Below are positions 2,646 through 18,954 of a stretch of DNA of 24,121 nt, piece by piece (position 1 is the stretch's first letter; every line of letters starts with the position of its first letter). The stretch is from a virus: UHGV virus genome UHGV-0136745, one strand, 5' to 3'. The position numbers and the translations under genes are program-made. Below the pieces are notes generated by a model, which was not told the DNA's origin, made no database searches, and saw nothing but the letters and a program-made list of their open reading frames with translations.

Positions 2646-3038
2646 CTAACTATAATAGTTTGCTATTAGGTCGTCAACCTGTTTGAACGAGCCAACGACA
2701 AAAACATTTGCGCCACGTTTACGCATCCGCTCATGTTCCCGTAGCTGGTGAGGGTCTGGCTTCGTGTTTTCGTCTTTCTTTACCTCGACGAACCAGATGA
2801 TGCCGTCGGGGAGAATTACCAGCAGGTCGGGGGCGCCTATTCTATTTTCGTACGACAACTTACGAACGAGGCCCCCGATGGCCTCGAATCGCTCTTTTGC
2901 GTATTTCTGAATCTTGCCTTCCGGGGTCATTAACCGATTATCCTGCTGAAAATAGCCGCGCCCAGTAATAAAGCTACAAGTACAGCGATTATAGTTATCA
3001 TAATACGCACCCCTCGCGTTTAGTATGTTCAATCCCAC
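2646..3038 (-). CDS. VRR-NUC domain nuclease (PD-(D/E)XK fold)
   Basis: C-terminal region GAPDLLVILPDGIIWFVEVKKDENTKPDPHQLREHERM matches the VRR-NUC signature (D...E.K plus downstream Q). Start uncertain: GTG at 3038 or internal ATG at 2930 (MTPEGKIQKY). Confidence 0.6.
   Translation of the reverse strand: MGLNILNARGAYYDNYNRCTCSFITGRGYFQQDNRLMTPEGKIQKYAKERFEAIGGLVRKLSYENRIGAPDLLVILPDGIIWFVEVKKDENTKPDPHQLREHERMRKRGANVFVVGSFKQVDDLIANYYS
2649..2677 (-). promoter_or_regulatory. sigma70-like promoter (reverse strand TTGACG-17 nt-TATAGT) with embedded palindrome AATAG-N4-CTATT
   Basis: Reverse complement of 2649..2677 reads TTGACGacctaatagcaaactatTATAGT. Same architecture as the sites at 6152..6180 and 8998..9026. 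Lies inside the last codons of the VRR-NUC gene. Confidence 0.45.
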
Positions 3039-5464: not shown

Positions 5465-6094
5465 TTAACCACGGCGACGACGTTCGCGGCGCGGTGCTTC
5501 ATCTTCTTCGTCGTCTTCCAGGTCATTGACGCTGGCCGCAACTTTAGAACCACCGAACGCTTTACCCTCGCCGACATATTTAATCGCCAGCAGGTTAACA
5601 CCGAGAACTTTGTACTTCTGGCTAAACCAGACTTCCACGCTTACGTTAGCAACGCAGCCGCTGTAAACCTGTTCACCTTCAATCTGTTCACCTTCGACAT
5701 TGAAGTCTGGCTCTACCTGAGTTTCACCTTTTTTAGAGGTTACAATCAGAGGTTGTTTCTGCGCCTTCGCTTTGAAGTAGAAACCTTCAGGGAAGTCTTC
5801 AAAAGGATTATCACGCTCGGCGATGTCCTTAATAGCACATTTATCCATGTGCTTGCCTTCGCCGTAGTTTGACTTCATCCACTTCTCGGCAGCGGCGGCC
5901 CCCAGTGCTTCTTCTACAACCGCGTAAACGGTGTCGTACATTTCGTCGATTTGCGCATGGTCAGACGGCAGGATGATAGTGGCGCTGTACTGACCTTTAG
6001 TGATAGAGCCATCGTCGTTTTCACGGTCTTTTTCGCGTTCGAATACGTTAACCCATGCAGTGTTTACTTTACGCAGATTTAATTTCAGTCCCAT
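5465..6094 (-). CDS. putative ssDNA-binding protein (DUF2815-like by architecture)
   Basis: 209 aa with acidic C-terminal tail (NDLEDDEEDE) then a basic end. Sits between a Cas4-like nuclease and Pol A, the position usually occupied by DUF2815 SSB proteins next to DUF2800-type nucleases. Assignment rests on context and composition. Confidence 0.45.
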   Translation of the reverse strand: MGLKLNLRKVNTAWVNVFEREKDRENDDGSITKGQYSATIILPSDHAQIDEMYDTVYAVVEEALGAAAAEKWMKSNYGEGKHMDKCAIKDIAERDNPFEDFPEGFYFKAKAQKQPLIVTSKKGETQVEPDFNVEGEQIEGEQVYSGCVANVSVEVWFSQKYKVLGVNLLAIKYVGEGKAFGGSKVAASVNDLEDDEEDEAPRRERRRRG

Positions 6095-6184: not shown

Positions 6185-6367
6185 TTATTCTAAATCTTCT
6201 TTCTTACACATCTCTAAAAAGGCTTTGTACGAGGTTATTCTAAATACCCGGTCAACAGCCTTAGACTTGCTTCTGTGAAGAACATGCACTAGTCCTCTTT
6301 TCTTTCGGGCCATAAACTCATCTAAATACGCCCGGCGCAATTGCTCAACTGTACTTGATTTACTCAT
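6185..6367 (-). CDS. hypothetical small basic protein (60 aa)
   Basis: ORF 6185..6397; start placed at internal ATG 6367 (MSKSSTVEQLRRAY), which overlaps the nuclease stop as ATGA. Confidence 0.45.
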   Translation of the reverse strand: MSKSSTVEQLRRAYLDEFMARKKRGLVHVLHRSKSKAVDRVFRITSYKAFLEMCKKEDLE

Positions 6368-7611
6368 TCTAAATCCTCCTCTGTTACCTGATTCCACTCA
6401 GGCCGTTTGTCGTCTGCCGTTGCTACGCACGGTGCACCTGGCTTACGTGTGATGAAGTCTTTCAGTTCTTCTTCCGGTATAACCTTAACCGCTTCGCTCG
6501 GCGTCATGAGAACAACTTTGTTTAGCATAGTGCCGTATGCCTCAGCCACCTTGTCAGCGTCTTTCCACGCACGATTACCCGGACGACCTTCTACCAGCTT
6601 GTAACCCGGCACTTTCTTACCGGAATGCAACGCGGCAGCCATAGCTTTCTCAACCTTGTCGATGTGCTGGCGCAACAACGGCAACTTCTCATACTCAGCG
6701 ACGAGTTGCTCAAGTGTCAATTCCAGCGCGAAGTCGTCCTCCAGTTCTTCTGCCAGTACCGAATTAACCGTCTTCGTTCTGGCGGCACACTGTTCTGAGA
6801 ACCTACACCACTGGCAACCGTCCGCCGACGGCTTGAAGTCCGACGCTTTCAGGTTCTTCTTACCGCGGAAGTACGCATCGAGTGCTAACAGCGCGCGTTT
6901 CTGTGCGAACTTAGCGAACAGTTCAAGACCTTCAACCGAGATATCCCACTCCGACGCACCACCGGCATACGGCTGGAATATGACCAGACGAACAGTTGTT
7001 ATGTTATAACGTCTCTTGAGTCGGCGATAAACACCGAGAGCATAGAGCATAAGCTGCTTGTTTTCTTTCGCTTCTACACGATGCCGTCCTGTTTTCAGGT
7101 CGCCGATAATGAGCATGTGTTCGTCAGTGTTCGCCAGTTCCTGAACGGCAACGAGGTCTGCAGTTCCGAATGTCTCAACGCCTTCGTATCCCGGATGCAG
7201 TACCTCAGTAAGATTGACGCGCATTTCAAGCTTGGCGTAAGTCGCTACGTCGATAATAGCTTTGCAGTAGTCGGTATACTTTCGCACCTGCTCAATCATG
7301 TCCGCTGTAATCAGTACCGCGCCTTCCATCGGGCTGATTAGCGCCTTAATCTGGCCTTTACCTTCATCCAGCACGTAAGCGCCGACTTCGCGTTCTAACG
7401 GCAGCGCAGTGCCCCGGATATAGGCGTTTAGGTGCACTTCTGCTATTGTATGACATGCGGTCCCCGTAACGGCAGCTTTACCGGATGTGTTCGGGATGTC
7501 TTTTTCACAGGCCAGTGATGCGGCACAGGTAAGCCACTTTTTAGCACCTGATGGCGACAGTAAGGCGTGCACATCGTTATTGCCGCCGCGTTCTTTTAGC
7601 TTCATGCTCAT
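6364..7611 (-). CDS. Cas4/RecB-family PD-(D/E)XK exonuclease with Cys cluster (DUF2800-like)
   Basis: Motifs ADLVAV...IIGDLKTG (D / D.K nuclease core) and C-terminal CQWCRFSEQC plus N-terminal Cys, consistent with a 4Fe-4S Cas4-like nuclease. Start at 7611 (ATGA overlap with upstream 50-aa ORF) or 7626. Confidence 0.8.
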   Translation of the reverse strand: MSMKLKERGGNNDVHALLSPSGAKKWLTCAASLACEKDIPNTSGKAAVTGTACHTIAEVHLNAYIRGTALPLEREVGAYVLDEGKGQIKALISPMEGAVLITADMIEQVRKYTDYCKAIIDVATYAKLEMRVNLTEVLHPGYEGVETFGTADLVAVQELANTDEHMLIIGDLKTGRHRVEAKENKQLMLYALGVYRRLKRRYNITTVRLVIFQPYAGGASEWDISVEGLELFAKFAQKRALLALDAYFRGKKNLKASDFKPSADGCQWCRFSEQCAARTKTVNSVLAEELEDDFALELTLEQLVAEYEKLPLLRQHIDKVEKAMAAALHSGKKVPGYKLVEGRPGNRAWKDADKVAEAYGTMLNKVVLMTPSEAVKVIPEEELKDFITRKPGAPCVATADDKRPEWNQVTEEDLE

Positions 7612-7760
7612 AAGTTCCAACCCCATTTAACTTTACGCGTTTTGCGTTTGCAGGCAACCGTGTCGCCGCTACGGTTGAAAATAATCAGCCAAGTTGAGTT
7701 ACTCACTCGAAAAGGCTGGTGACGTCTAACAAATAGAAGTCGCGCTTTACGGTTCGTCAT
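7608..7760 (-). CDS. small basic protein (50 aa), unannotated in ORF track
   Basis: Reverse-strand ATG at 7760..7758 preceded by GGAGG (spacing 7). Translation MTNRKARLLFVRRHQPFRVSNSTWLIIFNRSGDTVACKRKTRKVKWGWNL. ATGA overlaps at both ends with neighbouring genes. Confidence 0.45.
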   Translation of the reverse strand: MTNRKARLLFVRRHQPFRVSNSTWLIIFNRSGDTVACKRKTRKVKWGWNL

Positions 7761-15853: not shown

Positions 15854-16127
15854 GTTATTCTGGTTTGGCGGTATGCTCGCAATCGGGGGCACATCGCTGT
15901 TTAATGTATACCACCCCAGCGTAGATGATGGCCTGTTTGGGCGTGTGCTGTATATCCTCACTGCTATTGTTTGCGCCGCCGGTTGCATCCACCTGCTACA
16001 GGGCAGCATGTCACCGACGCTGCCGGAAACATTAATCACCCTGGTAGCGCTGCGACAGATTCGCCAGTCGTGGCTGCATTACCAGTCGAAAGGAGGGCAT
16101 AAGCGTGTCTCGAAACATTTCAGATAA
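15846..16127 (+). CDS. second holin/antiholin-like protein, two predicted TM segments
   Basis: From internal ATG 15846 (overlaps upstream stop): MTELFWFGGMLAIGGTSLF..., LYILTAIVCAAGCIHLL, basic C-terminal tail. Track ORF starts at 15753. Confidence 0.5.
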   Translation: MTELFWFGGMLAIGGTSLFNVYHPSVDDGLFGRVLYILTAIVCAAGCIHLLQGSMSPTLPETLITLVALRQIRQSWLHYQSKGGHKRVSKHFR

Positions 16128-16590
16128 TGGCTTGCATTTCTGCGCCGAGTTCGAAGGCTTCCGTGGAACTGCGTACCGCGCTACGCCGGATGAGAAGTAC
16201 CTGACTATAGGCTACGGGCATTATGGCGCAGACGTTAAGCCTGGTCAGACTATCACGCCGGGGCAAGGCCTCCTGCTACTCAATCGCGATATGGCTAAGG
16301 CGGTAGCCGCCGTTGATGCCGCGGCGCATCACTCACTGACGCAGGGCCAGTTCGACGCAGTATGCGACCTGGTGTTTAACGCAGGTGCTGGCGTTATCGC
16401 GGCTACTACCGGTACTGGTAAGGCCCTGCGCGCAGGTGACATTGCTACGCTGCGGGCTAAGCTGGCGCTGTTTATCAACCAGAACGGCAAACCGTTACTC
16501 GGCCTGCGCCGCCGTACAGCCGGGCGTCTGGCATTGTTCGACGGTAAACCGTGGCAAGAGGCGGTTGCTATCGGGAGGGCGGTAAAATGA
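16105..16590 (+). CDS. endolysin, GH24 lysozyme (T4 e / lambda R-like fold)
   Basis: N-terminal GLHFCAEFEGFRGTAYRATPDEKYLTIGYGH carries the Glu...Asp...Thr catalytic arrangement of phage-type lysozymes. GTG start with AAAGGAGGG SD. No TM segment, so holin-dependent. Confidence 0.85.
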   Translation: MSRNISDNGLHFCAEFEGFRGTAYRATPDEKYLTIGYGHYGADVKPGQTITPGQGLLLLNRDMAKAVAAVDAAAHHSLTQGQFDAVCDLVFNAGAGVIAATTGTGKALRAGDIATLRAKLALFINQNGKPLLGLRRRTAGRLALFDGKPWQEAVAIGRAVK

Positions 16591-16802: not shown

Positions 16803-16832
16803 CCCGGCCCTGACCCAGCCGGGATTTTTTTA
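16803..16832 (+). terminator. intrinsic terminator after lysis cassette
   Basis: CCCGGC-cctgaccca-GCCGGG followed by ATTTTTTTAT. Confidence 0.6.
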
Positions 16833-16853: not shown

Positions 16854-16882
16854 TTGACTATTACTCTGACACCAATTATATT
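16854..16882 (+). promoter_or_regulatory. sigma70-like promoter (TTGACT-17 nt-TATATT)
   Basis: ttGACTagTTGACTattactctgacaccaatTATATTtact, about 30 nt upstream of the 16916 gene and just after the terminator. Confidence 0.45.
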
Positions 16883-16915: not shown

Positions 16916-17113
16916 ATGAAAGACACTAAGTGGCAGAATGAAGCGTTACGTATGAGGACAAACAACATAGATGCTATCGCCGAAGCTCATCTTGATGCCG
17001 GGGTTTACGGTAGTGGCTGGCTTAAGGTTGATGTAAATGGGTATCTAACACGCATAAATCCTCTTGATATAGTCATAACCGTTAAAGCGTTAAACCGCGA
17101 GGAGGCTGAATAA
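16916..17113 (+). CDS. hypothetical protein (65 aa)
   Basis: GGAGTAGAGAAG SD before ATG 16916; first gene of a coupled small-gene block. Confidence 0.5.
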   Translation: MKDTKWQNEALRMRTNNIDAIAEAHLDAGVYGSGWLKVDVNGYLTRINPLDIVITVKALNREEAE

Positions 17114-17262
17114 TGAAAATAACAGATATCGAAGCATTCAAAGACGCGCAACTGATGGCACGTATCGCCGTTAGTAACCTGAGCAACAGCATTCCAGCGG
17201 ACGCGTTCTGGTTCGCCGCGATGCAGACACTGAAGGCAGCGTATGCAGGAGAGAAGAAATGA
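17113..17262 (+). CDS. hypothetical small protein (49 aa), unannotated in ORF track
   Basis: ATG 17113 overlaps upstream stop (TAATG); translation MKITDIEAFKDAQLMARIAVSNLSNSIPADAFWFAAMQTLKAAYAGEKK; stop overlaps next start (ATGA). Confidence 0.45.
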   Translation: MKITDIEAFKDAQLMARIAVSNLSNSIPADAFWFAAMQTLKAAYAGEKK

Positions 17263-17468
17263 GCGAAGTTACCGTCGGTGGCATCTACAGGAGTGATTAT
17301 TCGTGGGGTGAAGAGGATGACGCCAGATTCATCGTAACCGCGGTAGGGTTGGACCACATACTTATCGCGGACTGCCCATTGATAAAATTCAATGACTCAT
17401 ATTTAGAATATTGTGTTGGTAGAAAGGAGTTTGAGGCTAAATTTAAGTTTGCAGGAGAGAAGAAATGA
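17259..17468 (+). CDS. hypothetical acidic protein (69 aa)
   Basis: ORF with GCAGGAGAGAAG SD; flanked by a 24-bp direct repeat at both start and stop junctions. Confidence 0.5.
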   Translation: MSEVTVGGIYRSDYSWGEEDDARFIVTAVGLDHILIADCPLIKFNDSYLEYCVGRKEFEAKFKFAGEKK

Positions 17469-17626
17469 GCGAACAAGGTCAAGTAAGCCAACCGTTACGT
17501 GTGGGCCGTAAAGTCAGTCACACCCAGTTCCCGACACGTGAGGAACTGATGAAACGTAACAGTTTCCCGGGGCCGGACAAGAACAAGTATCTCAATCGCA
17601 TGTGGGGAGAGCGTAAAAATGACTGA
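17465..17626 (+). CDS. hypothetical small basic protein (53 aa), unannotated in ORF track
   Basis: ATG 17465 within the second copy of the 24-bp junction repeat; translation MSEQGQVSQPLRVGRKVSHTQFPTREELMKRNSFPGPDKNKYLNRMWGERKND; overlaps next start. Confidence 0.45.
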   Translation: MSEQGQVSQPLRVGRKVSHTQFPTREELMKRNSFPGPDKNKYLNRMWGERKND

Positions 17627-17804
17627 CCGTGAATATGAAAAGATGATGGTGGAGGCTGTTAACAACGGCGTAGATATTGGTCACGTTATGCACGTCCTGA
17701 ACACTAAAATCGCAGTAGCTGAGCAAATGGTGGAGTCGCTTTATGAGACTCGCCGTGAGCTTATTAACCGCTTCAACCTGAACAAAGGTGACAGCAATGC
17801 CTAA
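17619..17804 (+). CDS. hypothetical protein (61 aa)
   Basis: ORF translationally coupled to neighbours on both sides. Confidence 0.5.
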   Translation: MTDREYEKMMVEAVNNGVDIGHVMHVLNTKIAVAEQMVESLYETRRELINRFNLNKGDSNA

Positions 17805-18075
17805 AATCACAATCGCATCACTTGAACGCCGTATCCTGGTGCTGGAGTCAGAGAAGCAGACGTTAGGCGGGCAACTGTCTATCAATGGCGAGTTTCAGCT
17901 GGAGGCGTTTAAAGAACTACTGACTATTATGGCGGACATAGAAAATATGTGCTTGTTGCTAGAATCTGGGGAGTGGGCGGAGCATTGCACTAAGTCAGAA
18001 TTTGGCCAACGGCTCGAATTGGAGATTACTGACTTGCTTAGTGGTCTTGGATGGTCGCCAGATGAAATCGCCTGA
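17797..18075 (+). CDS. hypothetical protein (92 aa)
   Basis: Start at ATG 17797 (MPKITIAS), overlapping upstream stop; track ORF begins 17788. Confidence 0.5.
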   Translation: MPKITIASLERRILVLESEKQTLGGQLSINGEFQLEAFKELLTIMADIENMCLLLESGEWAEHCTKSEFGQRLELEITDLLSGLGWSPDEIA

Positions 18076-18244
18076 ACCAGTAGTCATTGATGGTGTCCTG
18101 TGGAAACCTTACGCGGTTAACCACATCGACGCCGACGGGAAGAAGTTCAGCTTCTACATTTTTGCAATTAGCCGTGAGCACGCCGCTTGTGTGGTCGACG
18201 ATATACGAGAAACGGCGTGGCTCGGCGATGAGATAGTAGGGTGA
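18062..18244 (+). CDS. hypothetical protein (60 aa)
   Basis: Start at internal ATG 18062 (MKSPEPVVIDG), overlapping upstream gene end; track ORF begins 18002 inside the previous gene. Confidence 0.4.
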   Translation: MKSPEPVVIDGVLWKPYAVNHIDADGKKFSFYIFAISREHAACVVDDIRETAWLGDEIVG

Positions 18245-18331
18245 GAGTATGAGCCTTGAAGTGGTTATAAGTTTAGTTGGTCTTAGTTATTTTATCAGGT
18301 TGACCGTCGGCTTTCTGTGGGGTAGATACTG

Positions 18332-18502
18332 ATGTTCGATAATATTGACGCAGCAATCGAAGAAGCAATCTGGCGTCGCCACAACGGCGAGCAACAACGA
18401 CACTTCTGCCTCGTGCAGCGCGGTAACATGATTGCCGTGGTGCAGGACAGAGATAATAAATACCCAAATGCGATGTGGACGACGAGGAATTTCTTAGGAT
18501 GA
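18332..18502 (+). CDS. hypothetical small protein (56 aa), unannotated in ORF track
   Basis: ATG 18332; translation MFDNIDAAIEEAIWRRHNGEQQRHFCLVQRGNMIAVVQDRDNKYPNAMWTTRNFLG. Preferred over antisense ORFs 18273..18651. Confidence 0.4.
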   Translation: MFDNIDAAIEEAIWRRHNGEQQRHFCLVQRGNMIAVVQDRDNKYPNAMWTTRNFLG

Positions 18503-18735
18503 TTACCAGCATTCCGAACCTGATTAAAGAATACGGCACGATGGCGGAGACATGCCGACAAACCGGCATCAACGAAATGACGATTCGCAAGTACAGCAAA
18601 GACGTTGATTGCGAGCGCCATGTAATTTATAACAACCGTCTCATGACACACGTTAAGACAAGCCCGGTGCTATTCACGCGCCGTGGCGTCACGAAGACTG
18701 AGCAACGCATTGCACGAGAGGAGAGTGAGGAATGA
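18499..18735 (+). CDS. hypothetical protein with possible HTH (78 aa)
   Basis: Start ATG 18499 overlaps upstream stop (ATGA); AETCRQTGINEMTIRKYSK resembles a helix-turn-helix. Confidence 0.45.
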   Translation: MITSIPNLIKEYGTMAETCRQTGINEMTIRKYSKDVDCERHVIYNNRLMTHVKTSPVLFTRRGVTKTEQRIAREESEE

Positions 18736-18862: not shown

Positions 18863-18954
18863 ACATCCCGCCCAATCCCCTTATATAATCCCTTTAGACG
18901 CGTAGGGCGCGTCTGATGCGCTCTGATGGTCAGACGCATATGTCAGGGGGTTAT

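Follow-up and report, generated by a model that had tools for sequence, protein, structure and literature searches.

The stretch of DNA analysed here, 24,121 nt long and referred to below as the window, is a metagenome contig of a Kagunavirus-like siphophage of the Guernseyvirinae (ENA ERZ1749178 NODE_648). Between the endolysin gene (16105-16590) and the gene of the small terminase subunit (starting at 18916) lies an array of small, tightly overlapped genes (16916-18735). It is preceded by a sigma-70-like promoter, TTGACT-17-TATATT (16854..16882, + strand), recognised by its consensus match alone, and, just before this, by a hairpin with a run of seven T (16803-16831, CCCGGC...GCCGGG, -13 kcal/mol, z = -2.6), so arranged that the array looks like a separate operon after the lysis genes. 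The part of the array considered here comprises a 49-aa gene (17113..17262, + strand, PHROG 2180) whose product ends in AAYAGEKK-stop, a 69-aa gene (17259..17468, + strand) and a 53-aa DUF2737 gene (17465..17626, + strand) whose product starts with MSEQG. A NinH-like gene follows further along, beyond the DUF2737 gene, and the remaining genes of the array all belong to PHROGs of unknown function. Scans of the window against Rfam and for tRNAs gave no matches. A 1.5-kb region around the locus matched 434 phage records, mostly Kagunavirus and Jerseyvirus; no match of this region to E. coli genomes was found, and it is therefore not a prophage region.

Variation is also seen in array genes on either side of this part. 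The 65-aa gene at 16916-17113, which precedes the 49-aa gene, is itself variable, being present at 85% nucleotide identity or more only in contig L148 and in L206, a contig with the same sequence as the window, and at 74% in SETP13-type phages, while other relatives have unrelated ORFs or none at its position. In the 92-aa gene at 17797-18075 the N-terminal ~45 aa (MPKITIASLERRILVLESEKQTLGGQLSINGEFQLEAFK) are kept in all relatives and the C-terminal half differs widely between genomes, matching several PHROGs, so that a mosaic joint must lie inside the gene.

The initial annotation had drawn attention to an exact 24-bp direct repeat around the 69-aa gene, and had read each copy as the AGEKK-stop of one protein, a Shine-Dalgarno (SD) sequence and the MSE start of the next; both statements hold, the former in the sequence and the latter from the ORFs and their translations. 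The 24-mer TGCAGGAGAGAAGAAATGAGCGAA occurs on the + strand at 17244-17267 and 17450-17473, these being exactly two copies in the whole window, with no third copy in the window even when up to three mismatches are allowed, and with a chance expectation of 0 in 100 dinucleotide-preserving shuffles. If one mismatch is accepted the repeat extends to 27 nt (17241-17267 and 17447-17473), at a spacing of 206. In the left copy (J1, 17244..17267, + strand) the 49-aa gene ends in AGEKK-stop and the 69-aa gene starts with MSE, an AGGAG SD and an ATGA overlap being included; in the right copy (J2, 17450..17473, + strand), identical in sequence, it is the 69-aa gene that ends in AGEKK-stop and the DUF2737 gene that starts with MSE, with SD and overlap as before.

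The shared module, here called J, has the core GGAGAGAAGAAATGA and, in its 19-mer form, reads tgcaggagagaagaaATGA. The AGGAG lies 7 nt before the ATG at both copies, and stop and start codons overlap as ATGA at both junctions of the 69-aa gene; J1 and J2 thus both combine a stop/start overlap with an SD placed 5-9 nt upstream inside the preceding ORF, and J is, to judge from these features, a translational-coupling junction with a near-optimal SD. Because the SD, and an ATG overlapping the upstream TGA, lie within J, any ORF upstream of it ends in ...GEKK-stop. That the repeat in the window is 24 rather than 19 nt long is due to the cassette allele of the window beginning with ATGAGCGAA, as the DUF2737 gene does; other alleles of the 69-aa gene start with ATGAGCGAC, ATGATCGAC or ATGAACAAC. 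As the 19-nt core is kept at both cassette ends in most carriers, the exactness of the repeat, judged on the sequences compared, is not by itself a sign of a recent event. Third codon positions are conserved at 0.94 in J as against 0.82 in the upstream coding sequence, a modest excess which fits a role as ribosome-binding site (RBS); since J is also functionally constrained in that capacity, its conservation by itself is no proof of a role in recombination. J is purine-rich and non-palindromic, and neither an inverted repeat at J nor a promoter-like or terminator-like site overlapping it was found.

The 69-aa gene (product MSE...FKFAGEKK-stop) is a rare accessory cassette, present in 17 of the 434 related phage records. 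Its product matches phrog_20019 (E = 2.7e-37), a family of unknown function, and no Pfam family. Between most of its alleles dN/dS is 0.17-0.47, and the ORF is therefore a genuine protein-coding gene under purifying selection; the exact protein is present on several independent contigs. One of five AlphaFold models is confident (pLDDT 80, as against 51-54 for the other four), and the predicted fold is that of a small beta-barrel resembling SH3/KOW domains; a Foldseek search of the PDB gave nothing below E = 0.1 and only generic SH3/KOW/Tudor-like barrels.

Occupancy of the site was compared across 9 + 7 loci from GenBank and 54 from IMG/VR, anchored on the 49-aa protein. This protein-anchored retrieval was used in place of a scan of IMG/VR (2.9 million contigs) with the 15-nt core, which returned at least 120 stretches, nearly all with a single match, and was too unspecific. 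In 25 of 60 related loci the site is empty, the 49-aa gene, a conserved left neighbour with J at its 3' end, being joined straight to the DUF2737 gene, the conserved right neighbour, through one J. The exact 24-mer forms this single junction in 19 of the 25 (K1H, K1G, vB_VIPECOMC04 and 16 IMG/VR contigs). Relatives without the 69-aa gene and with one junction copy, which the initial annotation had proposed to look for, thus do exist, and the opposite pattern of all relatives carrying both copies with diverged repeats was not seen; together with the unrelatedness of the 49-aa and 69-aa proteins, the empty sites support its suggestion of a cassette at a gene junction.

Both copies of J were present in all 12 compared genomes that have the 69-aa gene, and in 7 of these 12 the 19-mer is exact on both sides. 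The 24-bp pair itself recurs in three further independent contigs (L204, L205 and L207), and the isolates VT223 and SZH-1 have the gene order of the window. The exact DUF2737 protein was also used to look for an empty site in the backbone of the window itself; the one contig obtained, L208, has 94% identity and, at the site, another cassette of 67 aa. Judging from these sequences, the arrangement in the window may have arisen by gain, or may merely have escaped loss.

The 49-aa / DUF2737 junction has other occupants as well, about ten unrelated families of small ORFs (49-94 aa), each starting at J. Some of the cassettes at the site have another junction on the right, for example ...WEIVE-stop with AATGGGAGATTGTAGAATGA, and not every exchange therefore uses J on both sides. 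Beyond this site, no fewer than 7 ORF families are found upstream of the core GGAGAGAAGAAATGA (up to two mismatches allowed) and no fewer than 16 downstream of it, and phage ST20 has three cassettes in a row, of 69, 94 and 51 aa, bounded by four copies of J and each ending in GEKK-stop. J is thus one short sequence bordering non-homologous genes, and between the fixed borders of the 49-aa / DUF2737 junction modules are alternative or absent.

A second junction of the array shows a comparable situation. ST20 (1688-2079) carries a 79-aa cassette between the DUF2737 gene and a 61-aa gene; compared with the window at 17597-17627, this cassette ends in ...YKND-stop where the DUF2737 protein of the window ends in ...RKND-stop, both tails being encoded by a shared junction, AAAAATGACTGA, of 13 nt only. 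On this sequence comparison it is a J-type phenomenon at a second junction. In Jerseyvirus SETP13 (1407-1448) the 69-aa gene is followed by a 13-codon remnant (MKVYIVYGWEVQE and a stop) of a cassette that is intact, as a 151-nt insert, in the Jerseyvirus contigs L163 and L165; from its sequence the remnant looks like an internal microhomology deletion.

In other lineages the cassette is found within junctions of local type. SETP13 has GAACAAAA in both copies, with the tails AGEQK-stop and AREQK-stop, and in Shuimuvirus IME207 and contig L195 GGAG(A/G)AAACAAAATGA stands on either side of the cassette, with the tails ...GETK-stop and ...VEETK-stop. Phage C1 presents the empty site of the IME207 type, ...KALGEAK-stop being joined to MKLIDLL..., and in Raoultella phage RP180 the cassette lies at the copy of J after the DUF2737 gene. 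Homologues in the integrase-adjacent elements L198-L201 and in phage Av-05 are without such a junction and have other tails. Across homologues of the cassette the tails vary with the genomic context (VEETK, GGVESD, HSDAA, KLSE), and the last ~five residues are therefore junction-encoded and lie outside the cassette core.

Two further observations concern members of this family. Proteins P0026 and P0029 combine ends of IME207 type (MSNKK..., ...FEFVEETK) with an interior of Kagunavirus type, and from their sequences it seems that exchange also takes place within the cassette, the junction-encoded ends remaining local. The homologue in L198-L201 (1468-1677), 58% identical to the 69-aa protein, is solitary, has its own RBS and no J-type junction, and is located ~230 nt upstream of a tyrosine-integrase-like gene, on contigs that resemble integrated elements.

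Traces of exchange are found in the distribution of differences around J. Over J1, cassette and J2, a comparison with the window shows 1 difference in 230 nt for each of the contigs L204, L205 and L207; the changes are synonymous and distinct (17279 in L207, 17282 in L205 and 17285 in L204), and cluster in adjacent Gly-Gly-Ile codons. The flanking genes of the same contigs are 6-16% diverged from the window: 10-21 of 131 nt differ in the 49-aa gene and, in the DUF2737 gene, 11 of 153 nt in L205, the ungapped counts of 19/153 in L204 and 12/153 in L207 including a terminal run that is out of register owing to a length difference. When the cassette tract was tested against 257 flanking nt ending before this run, Fisher's p was 3e-4 to 3e-8. 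The closest flanking mismatches lie 3-9 nt to the left of J1 and 6-15 nt to the right of J2. The remaining cassette alleles are 11-17% divergent, and the low divergence of the tract is therefore not simply a matter of constraint.

A second allele behaves similarly: between VT223 and the XY1 group 2-3 of 182 cassette nt differ, as against 14-16 of 131 nt of the 49-aa gene, and an entirely different gene follows the cassette on the right. Finally, alignment of the cassette-bearing L207 with the empty-site contig L160 gives two arms that share precisely the 24 bp of J: 339 nt at 99.7% identity on the left, and 95.6% identity on the right. For L207, one crossover at J1 alone would also be a sufficient explanation. 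In each of these comparisons (L204/L205/L207, VT223/XY1 and L207/L160) the mosaic joints coincide with J. Among empty-site genomes, linkage across J was also considered, and correlations between adjacent 66-nt windows were low everywhere.

Taken together, the sequence comparisons show that the gene is present or absent, with only one J where the site is empty, that other cassettes can take its place and that identity breaks off at J, and they make it probable that the two 24-mers are copies of a conserved junction at which these phages gain, lose and swap single small genes. As J recurs at several boundaries within the array of small genes that follows the lysis genes in Guernseyvirinae, it would serve as a homology patch, and recombination between its short identical copies would insert, delete and exchange cassettes precisely and in frame; the 69-aa ORF (17259-17468) would be one such accessory cassette within the 49-aa / DUF2737 junction. 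Recombination of J1 with J2 would delete exactly 206 bp and restore an empty junction of the K1G/K1H type, and insertion may proceed by double crossover, through a circular intermediate or by copy-choice. Against this reading, 15-24 bp is little sequence for homologous recombination to act on efficiently. Among the products of the window are a Gp2.5-like ssDNA-binding/annealing protein (5465..6094, - strand; phrog_112, E = 3.5e-41), an exonuclease (6364..7626, - strand; phrog_69, E = 6e-121) and a resolvase-like endonuclease (2646-3038, - strand), which from their sequences may form a putative self-contained recombination toolkit of a virulent siphophage. The phage annealing protein with the exonuclease, host recombination or template switching are the candidate agents inferred for the exchange.

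These data have to be weighed against a simpler reading in which J is an RBS and translational-coupling signal only, and rare illegitimate recombination occurs anywhere, selection keeping those insertions that have a working J on both sides, so that the repeat is the pattern left by the survivors. The ideal SD spacing and the ATGA overlap of J agree with this, as do the several cassettes at the site that have no J at their right end, and the local junctions around the cassette in SETP13 and the IME207 group would be expected from a functional filter too. Such a filter does not account for 19-24 nt of identity that includes the Ala-Gly codons and synonymous positions and extends across unrelated ORFs, or for near-identical cassettes in backbones diverged by 6-16%, with both tract ends 3-15 nt from J in four comparisons, as repeated homology-independent events are not expected to place tract ends at J. 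The signal-only explanation is accordingly unlikely, while being the least improbable of those considered against recombination at J. The 206-bp unit could also be thought of as an autonomous or trans-mobilised element (a transposon, a homing element or an integron-like unit) with the repeat as its target-site duplication, given that local direct repeats of the target flank the cassette in three phage lineages. This is very improbable: the sole product of the unit is the 69-aa protein, beta-barrel-like and devoid of any signature of a nuclease, transposase or integrase, and neither a transposase or HEG gene nor terminal inverted repeats were found in it; J, purine-rich and non-palindromic, is unlike attC; many unrelated ORFs are found at J; and 19-24 bp would be unusually long for a target-site duplication.

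The remaining two explanations are refuted by the data. The AGEKK shared by the C-termini of the 49-aa and 69-aa proteins could have pointed to tandem paralogues with similar ends, and the initial annotation had proposed to check whether the two proteins have a common ancestry. In BLASTP, however, only their last 9 residues align, 6 of them identical and all encoded by or adjoining the repeat; the two belong to different PHROGs (2180 and 20019), and the tails of homologues depend on the context. They share nothing except this repeat-encoded tail of 6-9 residues, paralogy over the full length as expected for a tandem duplication is not found, and gene duplication can be discarded. An artefact of metagenome assembly was suggested by the low coverage given in the name of the contig record (cov 3.37), and is contradicted by the identical sequence of L206, from an independent sample (100% over 3683 bp), and by the presence of the same structure in three other assemblies and in the isolates VT223 and SZH-1; of all the alternatives it is the one to which we assign the least weight, just below the paralogues.

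The recombination proposed at J has close parallels in other phages. The modular theory of Susskind & Botstein includes short conserved boundary (linker) sequences where genes of lambdoid phages meet, and Clark et al. 2001 proposed them for HK620 (cited in PMC2327257 and PMC3029335). The resemblance consists in a short sequence bordering unrelated modules, mosaic joints that coincide with it and alternative modules between the borders; like lambdoid phages, the window also has genes of nin-region type in its array (DUF2737, NinH-like). A difference is that J belongs to a virulent siphophage of the Guernseyvirinae, lambdoid phages being temperate, and that it lies inside coding sequence, giving unrelated proteins a GEKK-stop tail. 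The candidate recombinase is Gp2.5-like here, unlike the Red/Erf-type of lambdoid phages.

A closely similar pattern to that of the 69-aa cassette was reported by Pope et al. 2011 (PMC3029335) for gene 68 of mycobacteriophage Island3, a small ORF without homologues that a close relative lacks; its C-terminal residues, and the DNA coding for them, are copies of the 3' end of the gene before it. The authors read this pattern as recombination at a short repeat, by deletion or intermolecular insertion, and invoked short conserved boundary sequences (PMC3029335). The repeat in Island3 measures ~50 bp (18 residues), as against 24 bp here (5 codons and the start of the next gene), and what the present case contributes beyond it is the large number of unoccupied sites and of alternative cassettes, along with tracts of identity that end at the repeat.

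In T4-type phages, short repeated regulatory motifs (PeSL) flank non-essential ORFans in hyperplastic regions (Arbiol et al. 2010, PMC2839356), and recombination between them leads to insertion, deletion and replacement and may yield circular intermediates (PMC2839356). A PeSL is an intergenic unit that combines, within the repeat, a sigma-70 promoter and a stem-loop terminator, whereas J consists of an SD and a stop/start overlap and has neither promoter nor hairpin; by analogy, J is a functional counterpart of PeSL cassettes without being a PeSL itself. Like integron cassettes, the genes at J are single promoterless ORFs, arrayed behind a common promoter and bordered by a repeated site. Unlike attC, J has no imperfect palindrome, and among the window ORFs scanned no match to an integrase or tyrosine recombinase was found, so that neither the attC-type site nor the integrase of an integron is seen there. 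Exchange at J is most likely brought about by general or short-homology recombination. In the literature on recombination in Kagunavirus and Guernseyvirinae, we found no description of J or of the array.

It can be asked whether junctions of this kind go beyond passive homology, having been selected in virulent phages as a docking system, specific to each lineage, for cassettes of one gene; we advance this as a tentative proposal that is clearly less likely than not to be correct. The cassette core, approximately from GTNGGTGG to AAGTTTG in the 69-aa gene, would then enter an SD-ATGA junction, and its entry, through copy-choice or a circular intermediate, would duplicate the local junction; the Gp2.5-like annealing protein may be what drives the process. 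If true, this would explain why the cassette is surrounded by the resident junction variant in Kagunavirus, in Jerseyvirus SETP13 and in the IME207 group, and why unrelated proteins have identical junction-encoded C-terminal tails, and it would constitute an analogue, at the level of translation, of PeSL or integron cassette systems.

Returning to recombination between copies of J as the preferred reading, the case is a clean new example of the known boundary-sequence route to phage mosaicism and no new kind of system. It provides a sequence-resolved instance of the shuffling of a single accessory gene in virulent phages, in which the junction measures 15-24 bp, many natural alleles, empty or filled, are available, cassettes are almost identical although their backbones have diverged, and the same cassette is re-tailored to local junctions in other phage lineages. 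For annotation, it implies that the GEKK-stop and GETK-stop tails of small proteins are by-products of the junction and not evidence of homology. It predicts that the cassette is readily lost through a 206-bp deletion, and it presents J as a natural in-frame docking site for the engineering of therapeutic phages of Kagunavirus and Jerseyvirus.
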